Source: an uncultured Planctomycetales bacterium
GTDB lineage: Bacteria > Omnitrophota > Gorgyraeia > Zapsychrales > JANLHA01
Direction of reading: 5' to 3'
Assembly (NCBI GenBank): GCA_964450385.1
Contig: CAYVEC010000004.1
Span: 22,148-86,147, forward strand
DNA: 64,000 nt
Part shown: positions 2,504-42,800 of the stretch, piece after piece
Numbering within the stretch: the first letter of the stretch is position 1
Layout: each line of letters opens with the position of its first letter
Made by a program: the position numbers and the translations under genes
The notes under the pieces: generated by a model
Told to the model about the DNA's origin: nothing
The model's input: only the letters and a program-made list of their open reading frames with translations
Databases searched by the model: none

Positions 2504-3388
2504 ATGTTCCTCTTCTGTTTATTCCTGGCCTTTCTGTCGGCCTTCAGTTTTATCATGGGGATGTTCCCCGTCGATTGGGAATCCCGGCCGACGCTTGAGA
2601 CCTTCGGGTATGATGTGCGGATCAAAAAGCGGGGGGGCCGGCGGTTCTCGCTCCTCAGGATCGTTTCGCTTATCAACAAACCCCTCTGTGTGGGGGTCAT
2701 GGGTGCCCGTATCCGGAAAGACCTCGTCAAGGGGCGCGTGGCGATATCGCCTGAGGAATTTTTTCTGCTCAAAGAGATCAGCGTGATCCTCATCTCGATC
2801 GCGGCGGTGATGCTTATTCCCAAAGACATGCTCTCCCTCGGCCTCCTCATCGGCGTCATGGTGGGGTATCTCCTGCCCGAGTATTGGTTAAAGGGCAAGA
2901 TCAAACAGGTCCGCCAGACGATCCTGAAGGAACTCCCCGACGCGGTTGACCTCCTCGGGCTCTGCGTTAATGCCGGGCTGGATTTCATGCTTGCCCTCAA
3001 ATGGGTCGTCGAGAAATCCCCGCCGTCGGTGATGATCAATGAGCTCAACATCCTGCTTCAGGAGATCAACGTCGGGAAAACCCGCCGGGACGCGCTCAAA
3101 TCTCTCGCGCAGAAATATGATCTCCCCGATCTCTCGACGTTCACTCGGACGCTCATCCAGGCCGACAAGATGGGGACCTCGGTCGCCGAGGCCCTTAATA
3201 TTCTTTCGGAAGACATGCGGCTCGCCCGCTTCCGGCGCGGTGAGCAGCTCGCCATGAAGGCGCCGATCAAGCTCCTGGTCCCGCTCATGTGTTTTATCTT
3301 TCCGGTCGTGGGTATATTGGTCGCAGGCCCAATCTTTATTCAATTTATGACCGATAATCCGCTGAGCAAGATCGGCGGCAAGAAGTAA
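2504..3388 (+). CDS. tadC: Tad pilus assembly inner-membrane protein TadC (type II secretion system F domain)
   Basis: 294 aa with an N-terminal TM segment and T2SS-F domain (LPDAVDLLGLCVNAGLDFMLALKWVVEKSP...; LIQADKMGTSVAEALNILSEDMRLARFRRGEQLAMKAPIKLLVPLMCFIFPVV), classic TadC features. It sits 21 nt after the tadB stop. Confidence 0.8.
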   Translation: MFLFCLFLAFLSAFSFIMGMFPVDWESRPTLETFGYDVRIKKRGGRRFSLLRIVSLINKPLCVGVMGARIRKDLVKGRVAISPEEFFLLKEISVILISIAAVMLIPKDMLSLGLLIGVMVGYLLPEYWLKGKIKQVRQTILKELPDAVDLLGLCVNAGLDFMLALKWVVEKSPPSVMINELNILLQEINVGKTRRDALKSLAQKYDLPDLSTFTRTLIQADKMGTSVAEALNILSEDMRLARFRRGEQLAMKAPIKLLVPLMCFIFPVVGILVAGPIFIQFMTDNPLSKIGGKK

Positions 3389-3412
3389 CATAGAGTGACG
3401 CGTTGTGTGACA

Positions 3413-3442
3413 AGGGGACGATTATCGTCCCCTTTTGTATTT
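3413..3442 (+). terminator. Rho-independent terminator after tadC
   Basis: GGGGACGA-ttat-TCGTCCCC perfect 8-bp stem followed by TTTTGTATTT, 25 nt after the tadC stop codon. Confidence 0.6.
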
Positions 3443-3456
3443 AAAAAGGGAAAAAT

Positions 3457-3511
3457 AAATGTCCAATTTTAATGTCCAAAATGTGTCAAGAGGGGTTTTA
3501 ATGTCCAAAAC
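3457..3511 (+). promoter_or_regulatory. Cluster of direct repeats TTAATGTCCAAAA (operator-like); a fourth copy lies at 3955-3968 inside the start of the giant ORF
   Basis: Exact 13-mer TTAATGTCCAAAA at 3469-3481 and 3498-3510 with a near copy AAATGTCCAATTTT at 3457-3470; an identical TTAATGTCCAAAAT recurs at 3955-3968. Three exact copies of an AT-rich 13-mer within 500 bp of a GC-rich genome is non-random. Confidence 0.4.
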
Positions 3512-3674
3512 AGCGACGGATGCGGAAGAAAGCCCTTTCATTTTTTTGGGCGAAAAGGGTCATCCTGTCGGCTGCAAAGACCGAAAAAAATTTTTTATTT
3601 TTTTCTCGACAAAAATTTTTTTCCAATCACCAAAAGACGTTTGATTTTAAACGAGTTAAAGCATAAAAATTTTT

Positions 3675-3702
3675 TTGACCGATTTGCCCGCTCATATATA
3701 AC
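3675..3702 (+). promoter_or_regulatory. Candidate sigma70-type promoter for the giant gene (TTGACC-N16-TATAAC)
   Basis: TTGACC at 3675-3680 and TATAAC at 3697-3702 with 16-nt spacing, about 170 nt upstream of ATG 3871. It is flanked by A/T homopolymer tracts (3581-3630, 3664-3674) that could act as an UP element or bent DNA. Confidence 0.35.
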
Positions 3703-3870
3703 ATGATATACTCTTAGCGCACTAGCCCGGAGGAAAAAAGAACAGCCGTATCGCAGTTGTCAAGAACATAATTGTCCAATCACAAAAGTCGCCTGAACCG
3801 GCGACTTTCTTGTTTTATAAAAACCCCGGGCGTTTTCATAATGTACAGTCTGTAAATATAGGATTCTTTT

Positions 3871-6800
3871 ATGGACGACAGAATGGACATAAAAACGAGC
3901 GCCGAAACTGTATCCGCGTGCCATGAGCAGGCGGGTGAGGGAACGGTGCGTCTTAATGTCCAAAATACCGGGATCCTCCATGCCCCGGAAGCCGGGCATG
4001 GGTTCCAGAGCCGTTTTAAGGCCTGGATCCGGGTTGTCGCGGCCCTGATCGTCTTTGTCTTTGTGCCGGAACAGGTGAGCTGGGCCATGAGCTATAATCC
4101 GGCCGTGCTCTGGAGCCCCCAGCCGATCCCGCTCGCGGTCGGGGCCCCGGTTTCTGGACCGGACCTTGTCCCAGCTGCGCCTGAGCTTGAATTGCCCCAG
4201 GCCGAGGCTGCGGCCATGCTCGCCTCGAATATCGAGTCCCTCATGGGCCGGATCGCGCAGATGAATGCCCGGCAGATTGATCTTGAGATCGCGTCCGCTG
4301 ATCAAAAACGGTTCGCGGATATCAAGAACCTCCGTCTTTCGACCCGTAAAAGGATCGCGGCCGCGGATATCCAGGCGGCCGTGTCGTGGCTGAAACAGCC
4401 CGAGATCCATCCGCTCAACTGCGGTGTTTTTGCCGCCTATGACTTTTTAAAGCACTACAATCAGCCGGTCTCGATCGAGCAGGTCTCGCTCGCGACGCTC
4501 TCGGTGGACCTGCTGTCTGACATTATTAGGCCCGGCGACCCGACGCTGAAGACGTCACTGTTCGCGATCAACCGGGTGCTCTCCCTGTATCCCGTTAAGC
4601 ACGCGGTGATTAAGATGCATCCTGAGGCGATGCTGCGCCTCGCCCCGCCGTTTATCGCGAATTTCCAGAGCGAACACTTTGTCCTCGTGACCGGCGTCTC
4701 CGGTGAGACGCTGACGGTCCAGGATACGGGCCGCGTGCGCGAGGTCCCGATCCCAGACTTTTTGGCCCAGGCCTCGCCGTTCGTCGTGATCGCCGAGAGC
4801 GGGATCCCGGAGGGTGTTGAATATACTGAGGCTGGCGCGGCCGAGCAGGCTTATATCTGGGGTGACAAGTGGGTGGACCGGTCGGATGAACTGCCGGGTC
4901 TCATGGGCGATGTCAGCGATGTGATCCAGGACGTCTTGGTCGAAGTCGCGATCATTGTTGTATTGGCAATCATTCAGGTCCAGATGGCGCAGTGGATCCA
5001 GCGGGCGGCGGAGGGGGCCCAGCAAGCTGGCGAGGCCGCCTCGATGCTCCAAAAGCTTGCCGCCCAGATGAATAAATTAGATTATGTGAAAAATTCTGCC
5101 GACTTGGGCAAGGCGCTCGGGACGGCGATGGCAATGGTCGGGGTCAGTGATTTTGCGAATACGCTCAATCAGGTTGCAGTCCTTCAAGGCTGGTGGGATG
5201 AGGATCTGGGTTTTGTGATGAGTACGGCGATGTCCACGGTCTTGGCCGGGGCCGTCGTGGGGCCTGGAATCGATGGCGTAGTCACAGCGGCGGAGGGCCT
5301 CCCACAGAATGCTACGGGGTCTGTCATCTTGAGCGAGACAGCCAGGGGTTTTGCGAGCGGGGTCAGGTCTTCCTTCACGGCCTCTCGGATGGCCACGATC
5401 TTAGGCACGGCCGTGGTGTCGACGTCATCCAAGGTCGCCCTTCACAAGGCCCTTCCGGAGGGCATGAATCCGATCATGCGGAATTTTTTGATGGGCCTCG
5501 GCTCGAGCCTGATGACCCAGGCGGTCCTCGCGGCTGGAACCATGGCTTTTTCATCCATGAAGCAGGAGATCGGCGCCGGTAATACGGTTAAGGATCAGCT
5601 TGATCAAAAGTTGGCGGAGTGGCAAAAAAATAATCCCGGGAAGATCATGACCCCGGCCGAGAGGGAGGTCTTGGTCAACGAAGTACGCGCGGGCTTGATC
5701 GCTGGTATTAATAATGGTTCGATCGATCCAGAGTCGGCGCGAGAGGCCTTTGCCAGGGCCGAGGAGCGGGGCTACCTTGAAGAGAACGTCCCGCAGGAGG
5801 TGCGTGCTCAAATCGAGGCGGATTTTAAAGCATACGCGGCAACCCCTGCTTTTAATGAAGCGATGAATGCGTATGTTGCGAAAGCGCAAGCAAATGCTTC
5901 TTCTGGTTCGACAAACGACTTAAAAAACCTATATATTGAACAGCAACGGGGCGTCTTTACTTCTAATAAGATAGATGGGTACATCGCGTCACAGCTTGCC
6001 CTGAGCGACCGTTTTGTGAGTAAGGCGATGCAGGACAAGCGCGCGGGATGGCGGAATGAATTTGATGACAAGATAAAAGACATCGGCGTGTTGAAGGAGA
6101 TGGTCAGCCGCGGCTATTTTGATCGAACCTTTGTTCCCTTTAATACTCAAGAGACCTGGTCGTGGCTGGGGCGCAGCATGCTTTCGCAGACGATCGGGAT
6201 GAGCTTTGCCGCCGGGATCAAACTCCTCCTCGAAAAAGTTGATGAGGACACCTTCGGCCCTGAGACGGCCGTGGCCCAGGCCCTGGCCGGATTCGGGCAG
6301 ATGATGGGCGAGGTGGTGGCCCAGGGCTTTTTAACAGGCTGGAAGGCGCCGGGCGAGATCGCATCGGGCGGTGTCGAGTTTGAGCATGTGACCCAGGTCG
6401 ACGGGAAGGACATGGCGGTTGAATTGAGGGACAATGGCCAGTGGTATCGTGTGGCCGATGCGGGGAAACCTGTCGAGACGTTAACGCCGGTCGCGGTCGA
6501 ACAGATCGTCTCGCGTCCTATCGTGTATACACAATCAGGCGAAAAGGTCTATTTGACGTTTAATCCGGCAGGCGCTGTTGTTGCCCATCGTGGGTCTTCC
6601 GACGGAGAAGAGGTTGCGCTTTCCTGGAATGATCAGGGTGAGATCCTCGCAGGCCCTATAAATGGAAATGATGACGGATGGCAGAGGATGCAGGCAAAGC
6701 TGCGCCTTGCGCCATCAGTCGGCATGAACGGCCAGATCTCAGGGACGCTCGTTCAGGATCGCACCTGGGGGAAATTCCTTACGGCGAATCTTGTGCAGGC

Positions 6801-18800: not shown

Positions 18801-21800
18801 TCAGTCCGGAGCGTCGACGATGATGTGGAATACGGCGCTTAATATTGCTGGGCCAAGCCTTTTTGGAGGCAACAATTCTGAATCGGTGCTCGACCGCGTT
18901 AAGGCCTCTTCGTATCAGGTTGATACGATCGCCCGCGGGGCGTTCCTCATGAGCATGACCGCAGGCCTGATGAGGGGAGCGATGAAAAAAGTTCACCTCG
19001 AGATGGCTCCTGCTCACCAGACACGGGTAGGCATCGGCCTAGTATTAGGCGGCCCAGCAGCACATGTGGCAGGTGCGGCGTGGAGCGAGGGCCTTGATGC
19101 CGAGAGTAATCCCCGGATGAAGATCGTCGCAAATACGGTGTCAAATTTGGGGACCTTAGCCTTTGGTCTGGGCGCCCTTGTTCTCCTCAAACGGTTCAAC
19201 CCCGAGGGATGGGTCAAGGCATACAACGCGCATACAGTGTCCGCTCGCTGGGATGCGTACGGAACATTAAAGGCCGACTTGGTGATGGCCTTTGGGGTGA
19301 AGCCGGCGGCCGCGATCGTGGGCAACGGGCTGGGGATGTTGGGCGCGGGCTCACTTGTCTATGGGGGCAAACGGCTCTTCGGGGATCTTGTTTTGAACGA
19401 ACTCGATGCGTACCGGGACCGTACGCAACGGACATTGCAGGATAGGGTCCGGGACACCACGCCGTATTTATTATTTCCGCGGAGTCTGCCAGACGGTCGT
19501 CAGATTGAGATCCGTTCTCTGGCCGGACGGTTAAAAGAACGGGATCCTTTACTTACCCAATTAAACGGAAGAGAACTGTCGGAATTTTCTGAGGACGATC
19601 AGGACATGGATCAATTGCGCCAGGAGGCTCGCAAGGCCCTTGGTGATGCAGTGTCAAAATATAATATTAGCGAGATCGAGCATGATGGTTTGATCGAACT
19701 GATCTTGACCCGACGGGTGGATGCTTTTATTGAGAAGCACGGCGTTAACGGCGAGTATCTCGTGAGCGGGCCGGACGATTCATATATCGTGGCACGCGAT
19801 CCAAAGACAGAAAGCTATTACCGAGCTGAAGAATATGCCGCCACTGATCGCGCGAATTTTGTTCTTAATGCGGCGCTGGTGGCCTCTCTCTTTAAGATGG
19901 CGCATCATGCGAGACAGCAGATGGCTGTTTTAAATGCGAATCCTAATGCTGCTGTGGGGGCGGGCAAGACGCTGCTTAAGACCTTGGGGCAATCTATTGA
20001 CGGAATGGGCGCGACTTATGAATCGGCTAAGGCGAATCCAGCGTTAATGAGCTTAAAATGGGCGGCGGCAGGCACCGCGGCCGCGGGATTAGGTTATGCG
20101 GTTGACGCGTGGGATCAACGCGATGGGACGACGAGCCAGACAGCGCAGAGATGGGCCGATGCCTTAAAAACAGGCGGGCTTGGTATGGTTGCCATTGGCG
20201 GGGGTGTTGCGGCAGGAGGGCTTGTTGATTCTTGGATGAAGCCCGGGACCTTAAGCGTTGCAGGGATCCTGCACGCGCTGCCTGTAGCCACAGGACGGAT
20301 GGCCGCGAGCTCGGTCAGCAATATTTTCTTTGTTATGACCCCGCTCTCCGGCGCCCTGGAGGTTGTCTCGATGGCGGCCAAGGTAGGGGCTCGTACCGGC
20401 GGGTCATCACTTGAGAGGAATTTTCATAATGCGACCACCGCCGCGTTTTGGGATAACACTCAGGTCTGGAGTGATGTCTCGCAAAAGATGGTTGATATGT
20501 CTGCCTTAAAGTATCAGGGGGCGAAGAGTTCTCTCGAGGTTGTTCTCCGTTCGTTTTCGAACGGGCTTTTTGGTGTTTATGAAAACGGGCCGCGGCGCGG
20601 GCAATTGAAGGTAACATCTTGGGCTGAGATGCCGAAGACCCTTCAGGAATTTCTGCCGTTACCGGCGTGGCTCGGCGGGGCGAAGTCTGAAGACTATAAA
20701 GGGATTCAGGGGCAGATGATCGGATTTTCTGTGTCGTTGGCCCTCTTGCGTGGCGCCACTCCGGTCCTGCAGAATATCAAGGCCGGTAATTTCGGCCGGT
20801 GGTTCCAGTCGATGAACCATGCCTTTGATAAGACATTTGAACTTGATCTTTTTAGACTCCCGGTCCGGCCGAACGCTTCGATATGGAGGAAAAGCGCATC
20901 GGAGGTAACAGGGTGGACCTATCGGATGCTTAGCGGGTCCATTGAGGAGATTGGAGAGCAATTCGCTCAGGTTGGGTTGATGCTGACGCCGATCGGTTAT
21001 GTGAGCCCGATCCTTCAGCAGTTTGGAGTTTCGGCCCCGAGTGCACGCGCCTTTGCGGAGCAATTTAATGAGGTCGTGCAGGAGATCGTTTTGAGCGGGA
21101 ACGCCATGGGGATTCGAAACGCCCGGTACAATATCGTGCCGGTGCTTGATGAGATGTTGAAGCCGGGGGCTACTGAGCCGACAATTCGGAAGAGCCTTGA
21201 GGGGTTAATTCCGCAGGCCCAGGCCGCCGGAGGTTCGTCCGGCGCAGCGGCGCCCGGGAGCTCACCCGGAGGCCAGGGCGCTTCGCCATCTCCTGTGGCA
21301 CCTCAAGAAACAGCGAGCGCCACTGGCCCATCCGTGGCAGGCGGCACAGCGCCGATCACGGCCGAGGACGTGCCGTTTATTCTTCAGGCGTACGAGGACG
21401 CTGGATTTTTAACTAAGGACGGGCTGACCGTCGAGGGGCGGGTGATCTTAACAGCGGCTCGGCAGATCGCGCAGAGAGCAGAAGGTTCATCTGATGGCGC
21501 TGTAAGCGGTCAGGAGTCTGCGGTGCGGGAGGTCTTGACGGCTGCAAAAGCAGCAGCGGCAGAGGACCGAGAGGAAACCCTTAAAAAATTGAAGGCAGTA
21601 GCAGCCTTTTTTTCAAACAGCGCTTCTCAGCTCAAGCGGATAAAGGCGAAGATCAAGGATGTGGAGAAGGCCAAGGTCGATGAAGATCGGCGTTTTGATG
21701 AGCTGATCAAGAATGCGGACGATATGATGATTACTGAGGCCGCGTCGCTGATCCTTCAATGGGGCGCCGGTCGCGGCCGAGATTCATCGATGGCCCGGTT

Positions 21801-24800
21801 GTCACAGGGCCTCCTCACCCGAGGCGGATTGTCATCGGGCTCGTTTATCGGGATGCCTTTTGGTTATATGGCAGCCATGATCAGAGAAGGAGCGTTCGGT
21901 AAAGGGCTTAAGACGGCGGAGCTTGAAGGCACGATGTCAGATAGCGGCACGAGGCGGCGATTTGGACAGCTACGGCCGGCAGGTCAATCTTGGTTGGCGG
22001 AACATTTCTTAAATCCTGATCGGACCAGGTCTGAGGAGGATACGCTTGACATGCAGATTGTTGATTTGGCCGGGCGAGATCGAGACGCTAAAGCAGTGTC
22101 GGCCACGGCTGCGGCAGCGCCGGCGGCGTCTAATCCGTTTGACGCTGTTGATGGCGTGGCGTTTTCGGGAGGCCATCAGGATTCTGTTGCGGCCCGGCAG
22201 GGCTTTGATTATGTGCGAGCCCATCATCAGGAGGCCGTGGAGGTCGGGGCTTATTATCAAGATCGAGGCGCCACACATCAGGCGACGGTTGATAGCAAGA
22301 GCGGGCGTTTTATCGGTGTTGACGGGCAGGTCCTGGATCCGGCACGAGTGACGGTTATTTATACGCTTGGCGGAATGCGTGAGGAGATGCGTGGTGATGA
22401 GGGCACGTCGGAGACAGTGGGACTGGGCGTTGGAGGGATCGATCGGGAGACGGGGCACATGGTGGTTGTTCTTGACCGGTCCGTTGCTTTTGATACGCAG
22501 AATCCGTTTGATAACAGCGTCGTCAATCAGGTGGTTCGTCATGAGCGGAATGAGATTGCTCGTATCCGTCGGGCAGAACAGCGGGTGGGGCACGCTGAGG
22601 CCGGGACGCCTGCGGCTCAACTGGCCCATGAGAATGCTGTCCCGCTTGATGGGCAGGCTGTTGCTGCGATTCAGGCCAGAACAATTGCGGCGTCGGAGCC
22701 GGAGCTCGGCGCGGCCCAGATCGCATTGCGCCTGATGAAGACGTCCGGGATATCGTTTGGGGAGGCGCTGGGGCATGCTCAAAGCGCTAAGGGCAGCGTC
22801 GGAGGCCGGCCTTTAATGGGCAGCGAGGCCTCTGGCGGTGAGACGCAGGGCGCAGCGGTATCGGGAGAGGCCAGGGAACAGGTTTCATCCGTTGGTTTGG
22901 GTAATGTCACCTTGGTTGCTGCGTCAGGCGGGCAAAAGGGCGCAGGCTCTTCGGGGGAATCGGCGTCGCAGGGGAGTCGACAGTTAAGTGAAGACCTTGC
23001 CAGGGTAAAAGAGAATCTTCGTGTGTCTCGGCAAGAGTTGCGCCGAGTTCCTTTTGCACATATCAAAGAGATTGTAACATTGAAAGGCCTGCGGAACATG
23101 AGGGCCGATAAGGCTCGTTGGAAGCGTGTGATAGCCCAGCTTGAGCGCGAGGCGCAACGATTACAAACCCCGGTGGAGACGAAGGCTGAAATGCCTCCTA
23201 CACCGGCTGTGCCGTCTGAAATGAAGACTGTTGAAGTGCCTGCCCCGGCCGAGGCGAAGGTTCCGGCCCCGGCGGCCCAAGCTCCGTCGCTGAGCACAGC
23301 CCTGTCACTTGAAGACTACTTGACCTTGGATCGATCAGGATCCTTAGGCCCCCAGACGGCCGCTTCCTTAAAGATTTTAGGCAAGGATCCAACATTGGTA
23401 GGTAGGACGATAAGGCACAAGGTTGAACGAGGAGATTCTGTTCATGACATCATGGATTCGCTGAATCGAATCACCGAAGGACTGTTGCTTCAGTCAGAAA
23501 TCGATCATATTCGAGCATATGTCCAGAATCTCGTGGCGCTTCAAACGAAGGGAAGGCAATCTACGTCGGCTTCTTCAACTGAAGCTGTTTCTGTCGCTGT
23601 TGAGAAGGCTCAGCCTGAGGTGGGACACGTTGCGGTGGCCCCTGCCGATGTGAAGGTTCAGGTTCCGGCGACGGAGGCTCCAGCTCCTGTTGAAGCGGCT
23701 CCAGCGCCTGTTGTTCCACAATCACCGGCACCTGTGGGTTCGGGTCGAACGGCTGTTCAGGCTTCTCAAGGAGAGGAACGATCGAAAAGGTCTGCAGCCG
23801 TTGAAAAGTATTTTGATCCGGGCGTTGTAAAGGAGGTTTCATCTGCACAGAAGGATGTTTTGACGCGCGCGAGAGCGGATTTGGATGCCTGGGAGTCGGG
23901 CCAAGCGGGCAAGGATCCTCAAGAGGCGTACTCGGTGCTGATGAATCTGCCACAAGAAGAGATCTCGGACTCTTCATGGAATATCGCCTTGGATTCGGCG
24001 CGTACACGCGCGAGGCGTTTGAGTGAAATGGATTTTGTTACTCATGGGGTTCGTGAGGTGACGGTTAAGGTCAAGGTTCAGCCAACAAAACCGGGCCAGG
24101 AAGCGAGCCACCAACCGCGCACGGTCATTATTAATAATAATGATCAAGAGCAGGAGATTTCAATCGGCAATGATCGACATATCGTGCTTCGCGCCAATGA
24201 GGCGATCCTTTTAGATGCCGATCGTCGAGGCGGATTGGTGTTTGCGTTTGATCGAAAAGATCGTGGGAAGATAGAGACGCGGATTCTTGATATTGCGAAT
24301 CGGACTTCAGATGGAGTCGTGGCCCGATTGGATTGGTCTGAGACGGACCAGGCGGCACAGCGGGCTGAGGTCACAGGTGGCAGCTGGACGAGACAGGTCT
24401 CGGCAGGATGGACGATAGAAAAAGATGCAAATGATCAGGTCACCGATGTTCGCGATGTGGTGTTGAGGCGAACGGTTTCCGTATCCCAAGGCGCGCGCGC
24501 AGAAACGATAGAGACGGGCGATGTGAACGGGTTTGCTCAATTATGGCGGTTCCTTAGGATCATGGCTGCGCCGTCGAGTTTGCAACCAGCACAGGCAGAG
24601 AAGCGCGACCGCGTGCTGAATTGGCTTGCGGAGGATGCGGCGCGCGCCGAGGCGTGGGTGCGAAGAACCGTACCGGCCGCGGTCGGGGATTATTTAGAGA
24701 TGGAGTATGGCAGTACCTGGGCGAGAGATGTTGGGCGTGTCCATGATCATCAGACAGCAACGAGGCTTTTTGCTGCGCTGAATGAGGCCTTGGCTAAGGC

Positions 24801-39800: not shown

Positions 39801-42800
39801 AAAGGAGGCCGGTGCGAGCGTCGTTCGAACCTATACACCGCCGTCAGCGGCGTTTATCACGGCGGCCCAGGCCCAGGGCCTTCAGTTGATCGTTGGTATC
39901 CCGTGGCAGTCGCCTGTCCAGGGCGGGGTGGACATTAAGAGCGGCAATTATAAAGACTATATCGCGGCGTGGAAAGATTCAGGCGCTATTCGGTATTGGG
40001 AGCTTGGCAATGAATACAATTATCTCTTTAACAATCATCCGTCGCTGAGCCCGGACGGTCAAGGGGCTGATTCCTGGTACGCTGAATTAGAGAAGGCCGC
40101 TCAGGCGATTCGAGCGATTGATCCCAAGCACAGCGTGGCCACGGCTCATGGCGAGATCCCGAGCGCGGATGTTGTCAAGCGCGTGCCGAGCGTTCAGGTG
40201 TGGGGGATGAATATTTATCGTGATGATAACCCCGGGAGCGTGGTTGGCGAATGCGCTGAGCTTCGCGCCCAGTTCCCTGATCGCGACCTGAGGTTCTATA
40301 TTTCAGAGATGGGGGCAGATGCCTATGACGGCCGCGCGGCCCGCGAGGATGAGGAGGCCCAGGCCCGTATTGAAGCCGGCCTTTGGCGCGATCTCATGTT
40401 GGCGGTCTCGGCTGAGAAGGCCACGGCATGGTTCCACGGCGCGACGATGATGACATGGGTGGATGAGTATTGGAAGGATGCTACTGAAAATAATCCGGAG
40501 CAGCAGAGTGTCGGTTCCACCGGGGCGATCAATAATGCCGGCGACCGTCAGTCTCACGAGGAGTGGTATGGCGCGGTACGTGCGGATGGTACACCGAGGG
40601 CCGTCTATCGGCGGCTGCAGTCGATATGGGGGGGCCAGGGCGACATCGTGATCGTTGTTCAGAACGATGAGCGCTGGCAGCGGAAGGCCCAGTTGTCCCG
40701 CCTGGCAGCGATTGACCGCCGCATCAGGGCCATTGAGGCGAAGAAGGCGGTTGTAGCGGCCGCGGCGGCAAAGACGCCTGTGGATGCTGTTGCGAAGACC
40801 ACGAAGCCTGATGGCGAGGTCGTTTATCTGACAGCAGAACAGGTTAATAGTAACGACATGAAGGTCTCCTTCGTTCATTTAAAAGATCCGCTGAGGGGTG
40901 GGTATCTTTATTTCAATGATACGAACGAGAACGGCGAGATGGATAAGAATGAAGAGACGGTTGTTGAGCCCCAGCCTGATCAATCGACGCGCGGGGCTCG
41001 TTGGCTGCCCGTCTTGACCCCGGTCGTCGAGGCGCAGGGCCGGCAGGCCGTGGTTCAATTTAAAGCGAGCGCGCCGTACGTCCGCGAATTCCGCGCGCTT
41101 CATCAGGGGCGCCTCTACCTCTCCGAGGATGGCAAGACATTAAATATTGGAACCGAAGGGACCGTTGATCAATGGGTCATGGGCCGTATCGGGGTTTATG
41201 ATACCGAGGCGCAGCGTTTCTGGATCCCGTTGACGGTTCGGGGATGGCGCCGGCTCAATGACGCGGATCCGACGAACGGGTACATCACAGGGGTTGAGAT
41301 TGGCAAGGATGCTGCGAATGATCCGGTCTATAAACTCTATGCGCATCAGTTTACGACACAGGCCGGACAAACCGTCGAAGGGGCGGTTATCGAGCTTTCA
41401 CGGCTCGGGCGCACGTATGCCGAAAGTGAGGAGATGCGGCTCATGCGCGCGTTCGGGGTTGCTCAGACGGAAAATTTTGGGTCCGTTCCGTTCTCGCAGG
41501 GCGGCGTGATCCAGGGCATGCTCCGCGATGAGATGTATTTTACAGGCACGCCGGTTGAGGGGAAGACGGATCCGAAGGGGCGGTCGGTTTATCGGAACGA
41601 GGTCAATAACTTTACGGTTCAGGGGCCGGAAAGTCAGCCGATGCCGGCGGGGACAACGGTTTTGAAGATCGGCCGAGAGAGCGAATTCAACGAGACTGAA
41701 CTCCGCAGCCTGAGATCCGGCTATGGCTTCCTCGATCATCCGGTGCACGGTCGGTTCTATATTAACCGGGCCCTCTGGGAACAGTTGTCAGCCGACGGCG
41801 GTATTGAGGTTGAACAGGCCGCAGGCACAGACGGCACCCACAGAGAGGATTTTATCCTCAGGGCCGGTGCCAATGTCCAATATCAGAATATGGATCTTTC
41901 CGGCGCGGTCATGAAGCCGGGCAAACGCGCCCAGCCGTATCTCTATAAGGGGTATGCTGAGAAGGTTTTTGCTGGACATGATATTGTCCTGTTCCGTGAG
42001 GGGCAGGTCGACAAGATCTATCCATCTCTTGATGAATTAACACAATTGTGGCACGAGGACACAGGGCTTCTTGAGATATACGGTGAAGAGGTGATTGATG
42101 AGTTCGAAGAGGCGCAGACGGTGATGCGGATCGCGCGAGATGTCGGGCCGATGAAGAGGGGCGACGTCCTTGAGGTGAGAAAAGGGTCCGCTGCCGCGGC
42201 CTGGTTGGACAGCATCCGCAATAGATATTTTGGAGAAGACGTTCTCGGCGCTTATCACACACCGCAGGGAACGATCCTCATTAGTGAGGAGAGCGAGATT
42301 GCTTCGTTGATCGATCGGGAGGTCGGCAAGTCAGGGAAGATCAATCTCAGAGGCGTTCCGGTTCCTGGCAAAGATGCTCTGACCCTTCATGTGACGCGAG
42401 ATTTTGAAGTCAGAGGGATGGCGGTGGCAAAGGGCTCGGTCTTGGAATTCCATCCGAAGTCCCGGACAGCGGAAAAGATAGAGCTGGCGAAGGAGTCGTG
42501 GGAACTTGGCTCGGTTGATACATTCATGGGTTCATTTGAGTTAAGCGCGGACATGTTGTTGGATGTATTGATCAAAGCGAACGGCCGGATGGTGGTCACG
42601 CCGGCAGTCGACGCCTTCCATGATGTCGCGTATGTCTGGGAAGGACGCGATGTTGAGATCGCTGGCGTGCTCTATGACGAGGCTGTTTCTAATATGAAAG
42701 AGGAGGCCTTTGTCCATGTCAAACAAAGTATAGATGAACTTGCACAGGGCATGGATCTGGTCAGCGGCCGCGACGAGGTGCTCACTCACATCACCCTGCC

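Follow-up and report, generated by a model that had tools for sequence, protein, structure and literature searches.

How is a gene of more than 60 kb controlled, and what role do the short repeats around its start codon play? This question is raised by a stretch of 64,000 nucleotides (the window hereafter; positions 22,148 to 86,147 of contig CAYVEC010000004.1, assembly GCA_964450385.1) from an uncultured bacterium of the Omnitrophota. The window contains a giant open reading frame (ORF), and a preliminary description of this DNA had drawn attention to copies of a 13-mer around its start. As judged from sequence comparison, these 13-mers are this genome's version of a DNA box of ~13–15 bp (AATGTCCAAT, consensus wwAATGTCCAATCTG). 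The boxes are most likely binding sites of a helix-turn-helix (HTH) protein encoded in the neighboring pilus/secretion cluster. We assign a probability of roughly 0.65 to the whole model, i.e., a DNA-operator array with a cluster-encoded HTH binder; repression specifically is less probable than that.

Boxes around the start of the giant gene

The 13-mer TTAATGTCCAAAA is found exactly at 3469–3481, 3498–3510, and 3953–3965, each time on the + strand. The first two positions agree with the preliminary description, while the third copy had been placed at 3955, which is the start of the 9-mer core and not of the 13-mer. The variant that had been reported at 3457 contains the exact core AATGTCCAA at 3458–3466. 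When up to two mismatches are allowed, the 13-mer has six matches in the window vs. 1.06 expected, and none of 100 shuffles reaches six. A weight matrix built from related loci was then used to scan the window. It located seven boxes in 3389–3990 (spanning 3456–3967), and the other 63 kb hold four matches. First-order Markov simulations of the AT-rich stretch 3389–3990 (1000 runs) gave a mean of 0.07 boxes and a maximum of two. The lone intragenic copy at 41874 had been regarded as probably due to chance, and this appears correct: it is a 9-mer at 41872–41880, and 9-mers with at most one mismatch occur 16 times vs. 13.3 expected. The giant ORF and the seven boxes are the following.

3871–64000, + strand: giant ORF of at least 20,043 codons, open to the window end (translation; 61 related loci)
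3860–3873, + strand: ribosome-binding site AGGA (3860–3863) and ATG (3871) of the giant ORF (read from the sequence)
3456–3470, + strand: distal box 1, TAAATGTCCAATTTT, 15.7 bits, core exact
3469–3483, + strand: distal box 2, TTAATGTCCAAAATG, 17.3 bits, first exact copy of the 13-mer
3498–3512, + strand: distal box 3, TTAATGTCCAAAACA, 13.6 bits, second exact copy of the 13-mer
3769–3783, + strand: leader box, TAATTGTCCAATCAC, 12.0 bits
3838–3852, + strand: degenerate proximal box, ATAATGTACAGTCTG, 14.6 bits, one core mismatch, ~30 nt before the ATG
3879–3893, − strand: intragenic inverted box, 17.4 bits, TGGACAT at 3884–3890, codons 4–8 (also found among the inverted repeats)
3953–3967, + strand: intragenic box, TTAATGTCCAAAATA, 15.9 bits, third exact copy of the 13-mer, codons 28–32

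Three of them (the leader box, the degenerate proximal box, and the inverted box) were absent from the preliminary description. The repeat search recovered the inverted box, which overlies the first giant-ORF codons, as TGGACATAAAAAC at 3884–3896, along with a variant ATAATTGTCCAAT at 3767–3779. The core of the inverted box covers Met-Asp-Ile (codons 5–7), and that of the downstream intragenic box covers Asn-Val-Gln (codons 29–31) in a segment that is variable in the protein alignment. The box itself is a weak pseudo-palindrome, TG-N2-CA, as read from the sequence.

The comparative set consists of 61 loci that encode relatives of the giant-protein N-terminus with 30–49% identity, collected in a scan of species-representative genomes. 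We counted all 7-mers from −1200 to +150 around the giant-gene start and compared them with the 6-kb flanks. This unbiased count yielded ATGTCCA/TGGACAT 168 times vs. 12.6 expected (~13-fold), in 55 of the 61 loci. The word ranks in the top two of the non-low-complexity words, with AATGTCC marginally higher and the low-complexity ATATATA also above it. This comparison supports the earlier prediction that a dedicated regulator controls the giant gene through an array of binding sites. The aligned box instances of the related loci yield the consensus given above, and weight-matrix matches are 27-fold denser near the giant-gene start (234 in 77 kb) than in the flanks (68 in 614 kb). A generic repeat with similar density throughout the genome had been named as the finding that would speak against a site cluster; because of the 27-fold enrichment, the box is not such a genome-wide repeat, at least within the available sequence.

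The positions of the boxes in the related loci are bimodal, with almost none between −350 and −50. A distal cluster of two to four boxes in mixed orientation starts a median of 55 bp past the stop codon of the upstream (TadC-like) gene, and its last box lies 61–760 bp upstream of the −10 element. Proximal boxes are located at about −17 to −36 (−), +14 (−), and +82 to +91 (+) relative to the ATG, the first of these near the degenerate proximal box of the window. A (−) box at +19 (range +7 to +28) was called in ~33 of 60 related loci. The leader box flips its strand in relatives: at the aligned position, locus L001 has a box at 5885–5899 (−, score 10.2) and L002 at 5881–5895 (−, score 8.9).

The intragenic boxes fall in the sole poorly conserved part of the giant-protein N-terminus, and their codons are fixed. 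The Asp codon of the Leu/Met-Asp-Ile tripeptide is GAC in 33 of 39 loci, vs. 31% elsewhere in the same genes (p = 9e-12). For Val-Gln dipeptides in residues 16–50, the Val codon is GTC in 20 out of 21 cases, vs. a 25% background (p = 2e-11). Selection thus acts on the nucleotides. The distal arrays lie upstream of a conserved promoter in mixed orientation, the leader box of the window and that of L001/L002 occupy different strands, and transcribed copies occur in both senses, with the sense copies located at the HTH gene (described below) and the antisense ones around the start of the giant ORF. Arrays outside the transcript, mixed orientation, and sense and antisense copies together speak for a trans-acting factor that recognizes double-stranded DNA. 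The occurrence in both orientations and upstream of the promoter also argues against an RNA-binding protein.

We considered and rejected several known types of site. An array of CsrA-type GGA sites, or of sites for another RNA-binding protein, does not match, since the distal arrays lie upstream of the promoter and not all copies are in the transcript; in addition, the HTH-gene boxes and the proximal giant-gene boxes have opposite senses. The boxes also look unlike a sigma-54 promoter, DnaA boxes or iterons, or the RfaH ops site in sequence, and they occur in both orientations and outside the transcript.

An imperfect hairpin of ~85 nt with three nested helices is predicted at 3881–3965 of the window, as well as in L001–L007, L058, and L009. 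The boxes could function primarily at the RNA level: TGGACAT at +14 and ATGTCCA at +85 would close this mRNA hairpin over codons 5–31 and tune translation initiation or early elongation. The upstream DNA copies would then be secondary, although such a role could also work alongside one at the DNA level. Folding provides some support. Both boxes pair in the minimum-free-energy fold of the window (z-score of −3.44 for the RNA 3719–3990), and the +14/+85 pairing is present in the corresponding fold of nine of the ten loci that have both boxes. The interior of the hairpin is more structured than shuffled sequences (mean z −2.35), its own two halves fold at −19.2 kcal/mol compared with −13.8 kcal/mol for chimeras of unrelated loci, and the +14/+85 region folds better than downstream coding segments of equal length. 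The inner stems vary by locus (TCTGC/GCAGA, CTCTAA/TTAGAG, ATCCGC/GCGGGT). On the other side, the core is invariant across the phylum and identical to that of the non-transcribed distal boxes and the HTH-gene boxes; intramolecular pairing alone needs no invariant core, so this invariance counts against a role in RNA only. In about ten loci, only boxes of one orientation occur at −17 and +19, and these are unable to pair; L186 and L191 lack proximal boxes. RNAalifold on the region +14 to +85 yields only the invariant box-box helix, and the chimera test is significant in just three of ten loci individually. We consider an RNA-level explanation possible but unlikely.

A second array at the gene of a helix-turn-helix protein

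Which protein could recognize the boxes? A metagenome scan for three spaced copies of AATGTCCA returned at least 120 stretches. Among the matches listed, almost all are unrelated tandem repeats and none contains a giant-gene N-terminus. Two matches (L078 and L144) have three boxes between the promoter and the ATG of a gene for a 288-aa protein. This gene is preceded by a DUF192 gene and followed by two Flp-type pilin genes. The N-terminus of the encoded protein resembles the Tc3-transposase HTH domain, a structural match to a sequence-specific DNA-binding domain. The protein is ~290 aa long in most lineages and up to 686 aa in others, and the family members found are annotated as Omnitrophota or carry no annotation. 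Apart from weak matches to HTH_32 and HTH_Tnp_Tc3_2, no Pfam family was detected, and a sequence search of the PDB with the family profile gave no match.

In relatives, the HTH gene has a fixed place in the secretion cluster. The 5′ part of the cluster reads rotamase, RcpC, secretin, a TadZ/TadA fusion, DUF192, and the HTH gene, followed by several small pilin-like genes, unknown genes, TadB, TadC, and the giant gene. In these relatives, the HTH gene lies ~8–10 kb before the giant gene; of this upstream DNA, the window includes 3.9 kb. We assume from the relatives that the HTH gene is present in the genome of the window.

Each of the 11 lineages examined, whose HTH proteins are 35–95% identical, has boxes at the promoter or in the 5′ untranslated region (UTR) of this gene. 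The boxes are mostly located between the −10 element and the ATG, and their spacings of 19–21 and 12–13 bp are conserved. The HTH-gene arrays contain 20 matches in seven regions of 200 bp (1.4 kb), vs. eight in 110 kb elsewhere. In L186 (giant gene of 5,282 aa) and L191 (32,492 aa), the HTH-gene array and the array between TadC and the giant gene are present on one contig. Both arrays of L186 contain TTAATGTCCAATTTA with spacings of 20 and 12, and both arrays of L191 contain the variant TTGTCCA. The preliminary description had mentioned the tad operon as a possible further target; the same boxes at an HTH gene that precedes Flp-pilin genes in a Tad-like cluster, in 11 lineages, lend support to such a link.

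The boxes could be true DNA sites for another, unlinked factor, such as a global regulator or a nucleoid protein, with the HTH gene as merely another target. The HTH protein was indeed assigned solely through its co-location and the boxes before its gene, and its HTH domain is weakly detected at the sequence level. An unlinked factor fits less well with the distribution of the boxes, which form arrays only at the HTH and giant genes within the 20-kb clusters and drop to chance level outside these two target regions in ~720 kb of Omnitrophota sequence. In addition, the HTH protein structurally matches a sequence-specific DNA-binding domain, and box variants co-vary between the two arrays of a genome. 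We regard a different binder as quite improbable.

The same distribution leaves next to no room for a generic dispersed repeat, be it a repetitive extragenic palindrome/bacterial interspersed mosaic element (REP/BIME-like) or the remnant of a mobile element, or for a functionless chance repeat. Such repeats would explain why boxes cluster directly after a stop codon in mixed orientation, and Y1-transposase genes (IS200/RAYT-type) adjoin the HTH-gene array in L187, L188, L189, and L193. The density outside both target regions nevertheless equals the composition-matched expectation over the ~720 kb. The boxes are kept at orthologous positions despite 30–49% protein identity, the box is no hairpin-forming palindrome, and selection at the codon level is seen within the ORF.

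The gap between the DUF192 and HTH genes contains, on the opposite strand, either a Y1 (IS200/RAYT-type) transposase gene or a gene of the 23S_rRNA_IVP family. In L193, where no DUF192 gene was called, the gap lies between the ATPase and HTH genes. It may be either an insertion hot spot or the site of a conserved accessory gene beside the array. The coordinates are as follows.

L184, 9500–9886
L187, 9120–9605
L188, 9153–9638
L189, 9006–9686
L193, 9252–9734

Promoter, leader, and putative mode of control

The intergenic region before the giant gene is 482 bp long and has a GC content of 38%, vs. 56% for the whole window. It is organized, in order, into a terminator-like hairpin, three boxes, an A/T-tract spacer, a promoter, a leader of ~150 nt, the degenerate box, and the ribosome-binding site. 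The parts that matter for control are listed here.

3540–3683, no strand: spacer rich in A/T tracts, ~36% GC, with runs of A5–7/T5–7 and short AT palindromes (composition profile, repeats)
3684–3712, + strand: sigma-70-like promoter of the giant gene, type cTTGcc-N17-TGnTATACT (promoter scan)
3719–3870, + strand: 5′ leader of ~150 nt (alignments, RNA fold)
3785–3818, + strand: terminator-like hairpin in the leader (3785–3808, 9-pair stem), followed by the tail CTTGTTTT (terminator scan, alignment)

The promoter consists of a −35 element TTGCCC (3684–3689), a 17-nt spacer, TG (3704–3705), and a −10 element TATACT (3707–3712), with an inferred transcription start near 3719. The same promoter type was found upstream of the giant gene in ~50 of 61 sequences (the window and 60 related loci), always facing the gene and located between the distal and the proximal box sets. 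The hexamer TATACT occurs 56 times on the + strand upstream of giant genes vs. 15 times in reverse. We also observed a uniform extended −10 promoter (cTTGcc/TTGACA-N17-TGnTATACT or TATATT) before the pilin and HTH genes of L182–L193, which may serve as an Omnitrophota promoter model.

Relative to the inferred start, the distal boxes are centered near −256, −243, and −214, and the leader and intragenic boxes at +58, +127, +168, and +242. Both sets together bracket the giant-gene promoter, with the intragenic boxes within the first 32 codons. We propose that a sequence-specific protein recognizes the boxes in double-stranded DNA, and that the HTH protein binds single boxes in a monomer-like manner, with box number, spacing, and orientation differing among lineages. 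The location of the boxes on or beside the promoter of the HTH gene itself, mostly between −10 and ATG, implies negative autoregulation, i.e., the HTH protein would repress its own gene. No box lies on the giant-gene promoter, so repression there needs looping or a roadblock. In the former case, the bound protein would bridge both box sets via the A/T-tract spacer, which is possibly intrinsically bent, and loop out the promoter; in the latter, it would block RNA polymerase or elongation at the start of the ORF. By either route, expression of the >60-kb ORF would be set in step with the pilus genes.

Several points weigh against this model. The Pfam matches of the candidate binder to HTH_32 and HTH_Tnp_Tc3_2 are weak (E ~0.02), and its C-terminal two thirds (~200 aa) matched no known fold in a structure/fold search. 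Neither the window nor the 6-kb flanks of L001–L061 yielded an HTH homologue. The giant-gene promoter is overlapped by no box, and activation from the distal array at a distance is equally compatible with the arrangement. The positions of the proximal boxes are fixed with respect to the start codon and not to the promoter, and the boxes at +14 and +85 close the predicted mRNA hairpin in ~10 loci, which hints at an additional or alternative role at the RNA level. Finally, an intergenic array before the giant gene is missing from some lineages (L182, L184).

An arrangement of inverted boxes around a promoter could also represent an invertible switch for phase variation, in which the boxes are recombination sites and inversion cuts the promoter, ribosome-binding site, and first codons off from the ORF. 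The inverted repeats 3495–3507/3884–3896 (13 nt, 92% complementary, 376 bp apart) do flank the promoter, and the candidate binder has a transposase-type DNA-binding domain. The size of the element is also typical of invertible elements; fimS and the Bacteroides switches are of similar size. The promoter is, however, gene-facing wherever it was found among the 61 sequences, in line with the TATACT counts above, the reverse copies being in AT-rich DNA, and neither the window nor the conserved cluster encodes a recombinase. The invariant columns of the HTH family include no acidic triad, and the protein matches neither a recombinase nor a DDE fold. Many arrays are all-direct, and those of L186 contain direct boxes only. 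A switch of this type is very unlikely.

The leader adds a further element of possible control. Alignments with L001 and L002 show that its 5′ end CTAGCCCGGAGG (3722–3733) is conserved; this end is predicted to base-pair with CCCCGGGC near 3824–3831, 3′ of the leader hairpin. The hairpin and its CTTGTTTT tail are likewise conserved in L001 and L002, making it a candidate attenuator or structured leader. RNAalifold of window-type leaders covered three sequences. An Rfam search of 3300–4200 matched no family to the leader above threshold, and no cyclic di-GMP (c-di-GMP) family, including the c-di-GMP-I (GEMM-I) riboswitch, is among the matches up to E 10 in this region. Giant-gene leaders in relatives run up to ~590 nt.

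Combining these elements, the boxes might act on two levels, which together with the leader hairpin would form a three-layer checkpoint for the giant protein. At the DNA level, the Tc3-like protein would connect the start-codon boxes with the distal array located where the pilus operon ends, thereby gating the promoter. At the RNA level, the intragenic boxes would form the base of the ~85-nt hairpin over codons 5–31 and set the frequency of ribosome starts. The terminator-like hairpin in the leader, replaced in relatives by leaders that resemble c-di-GMP riboswitches, would be the third layer. We consider this combined scheme doubtful.

The simpler operator model has well-known counterparts. 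Lambda CI at OL/OR, GalR, AraC, and DeoR are autoregulated HTH regulators with looping between multiple operators. The boxes described here share with these systems the multiple copies of a short site far upstream and downstream of the regulated promoter, and they also lie over the promoter or 5′ UTR of the candidate regulator itself. They differ in that the candidate protein belongs to an unrelated family, the sites are single and non-palindromic, with varying number, spacing, and orientation, and two of them are within the first 32 codons of the target; looping, like repression, is inferred here. The HTH fold of the protein resembles the N-terminal DNA-binding domain of Tc3/Tc1-mariner/IS630 transposases (PDB 1u78, 1tc3). 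Unlike these transposases, the protein has no DDE domain, and we found no terminal inverted repeats or signs of mobility. Its gene occupies a fixed place in a conserved operon, and its C-terminal 200 aa are without a known fold. Response-regulator promoters also contain scattered heptamers, such as the NarL heptamers and the Spo0A ‘0A box’ TGTCGAA. As a lead only, the boxes resemble these in being short, asymmetric, and present in either orientation up- and downstream of promoters, and TGTCCAA is one base off the 0A box. To our knowledge, Spo0A is restricted to Firmicutes, and the candidate HTH binder, in contrast to NarL and Spo0A, has no receiver domain.

Taken as a type, the system would be ordinary: an autoregulated HTH protein and its operator array. 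The novelty appears to lie in the box, in the protein family, and in the target, a member of the largest class of bacterial genes. The largest bacterial proteins predicted are the products of Omnitrophota giant genes, with 32,492 aa in L191 and at least 20,043 aa in the window; the organisms that carry them are uncultured. The box, promoter, and candidate regulator offer a first concrete and testable handle on giant-gene control. Through the box, the giant gene would be tied in its expression to the Flp-pilin genes of the adjoining secretion cluster, and the box could be used to find the remaining regulon in complete genomes.

Genomic setting and further observations

The giant-gene locus of the window is the one presented by West-Roberts et al. 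(2023, bioRxiv 10.1101/2023.11.21.568195), who reported the conservation of a type II secretion system (T2SS)/Tad-like cluster upstream of giant genes with N-terminal C39 domains. The cluster contains rotamase, RcpC, secretin, ATPase, and GspF-like genes along with small proteins with class-III signals (bioRxiv 10.1101/2023.11.21.568195). The words promoter, helix-turn-helix, and riboswitch are absent from that preprint and from a 2026 preprint on complete genomes, and neither contains a DNA motif or an HTH regulator for the giant-gene locus. Our literature searches on the box sequence and on Omnitrophota transcription returned nothing relevant, and no paper in the searched library reports either the box or the HTH protein.

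The giant ORF is of the Omnitrophota ‘Archaeovorin’ type. It is preceded by an in-frame stop at 3859 and its reading frame is unbroken to the window end. Its N-terminus consists of a transmembrane segment and a Peptidase_C39-like domain, which has a weak Pfam match here and matches PF03412 in homologues. The homologues of this N-terminus carry the annotation Candidatus Omnitrophica/Omnitrophota. The upstream features of the window are given below.

1625–2482: TadB-like paralogue (Pfam PF00482)
2504–3388, + strand: TadC-like gene (T2SSF domain), the final gene of the Tad/T2SS-like cluster before the giant gene (Pfam PF00482)
3412–3442, + strand: intrinsic-terminator-like hairpin with a T-rich tail that closes the upstream operon (terminator scan; 10-pair stem with six G-C pairs)

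The PF00482 matches of the TadC-like/TadB-like gene pair have E-values of 1.2e-13 and 1.1e-18, and the gene order TadB-TadC-giant gene is repeated in relatives. In L182/L183 (18830–18834) and L184 (19692–19696), the giant (or C39-domain) gene begins 3 nt past the TadC-like gene. There is no intergenic array or promoter before the giant gene in these three loci, and the HTH-gene array is the only one in the cluster. Further upstream in the window, a 120-aa ORF (1226–1588) resembles Flp/TadE prepilins at its N-terminus, with G/VSTVEY and then a hydrophobic helix, and the ORF at 3–1232 is the C-terminal part of a conserved protein of ~1,060 aa without a Pfam family. Pfam searches with the 1061-aa and 125-aa upstream proteins of relatives matched no family, and we therefore see no regulator in the 6-kb flanks.

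The best of the sub-threshold Rfam matches in 3300–4200 is to Termite-leu (3407–3491; 31.7 bits vs. a cut-off of 51; E 7.7e-5 in a small search). It covers the operon terminator hairpin and the first two boxes and is probably driven by the hairpin.

Several relatives have paralogous leaders at the Flp-pilin operon and at the giant gene. These leaders share ACGAAAAGG, a hairpin, AGCAAAGCCACGG, and GGGCUGCCGAAA, the last of which overlaps the terminator stem. They are located as follows.

L186, 11060–11200 and 19540–19680
L191, 11150–11310 and 18100–18230
L182, 10900–11040
L008, 5559–5663
L044 and L046

The leaders resemble the c-di-GMP-I/c-di-GMP-I-GGC consensus. For that of L008, Rfam gave a c-di-GMP match below the cut-off (23.5 vs. 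35 bits; E 0.023); for those of L186 and L191 it gave none. Judging from these sequence features, they may form a divergent class of c-di-GMP-type riboswitches that controls pilins and giant genes. In L182, a c-di-GMP-I-GGC riboswitch at 20344–20420 scores above the Rfam gathering score (60.9 vs. 59 bits). It is located between a 466-aa C39-domain gene and the next gene, and a strong box (20595, −, 18.9 bits) is found ~105 nt inside the latter.

Among the metagenome-scan matches listed, many unrelated contigs carry a near-identical repeat with a period of 21 nt, (c/g)AATGTCCActttt. These contigs originate from gut and other metagenomes.

L065, L077, L112, L156, L161, L174, L180, and L181: contigs with the 21-nt-period repeat

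This repeat is unrelated to Omnitrophota and looks like a coding tandem repeat.

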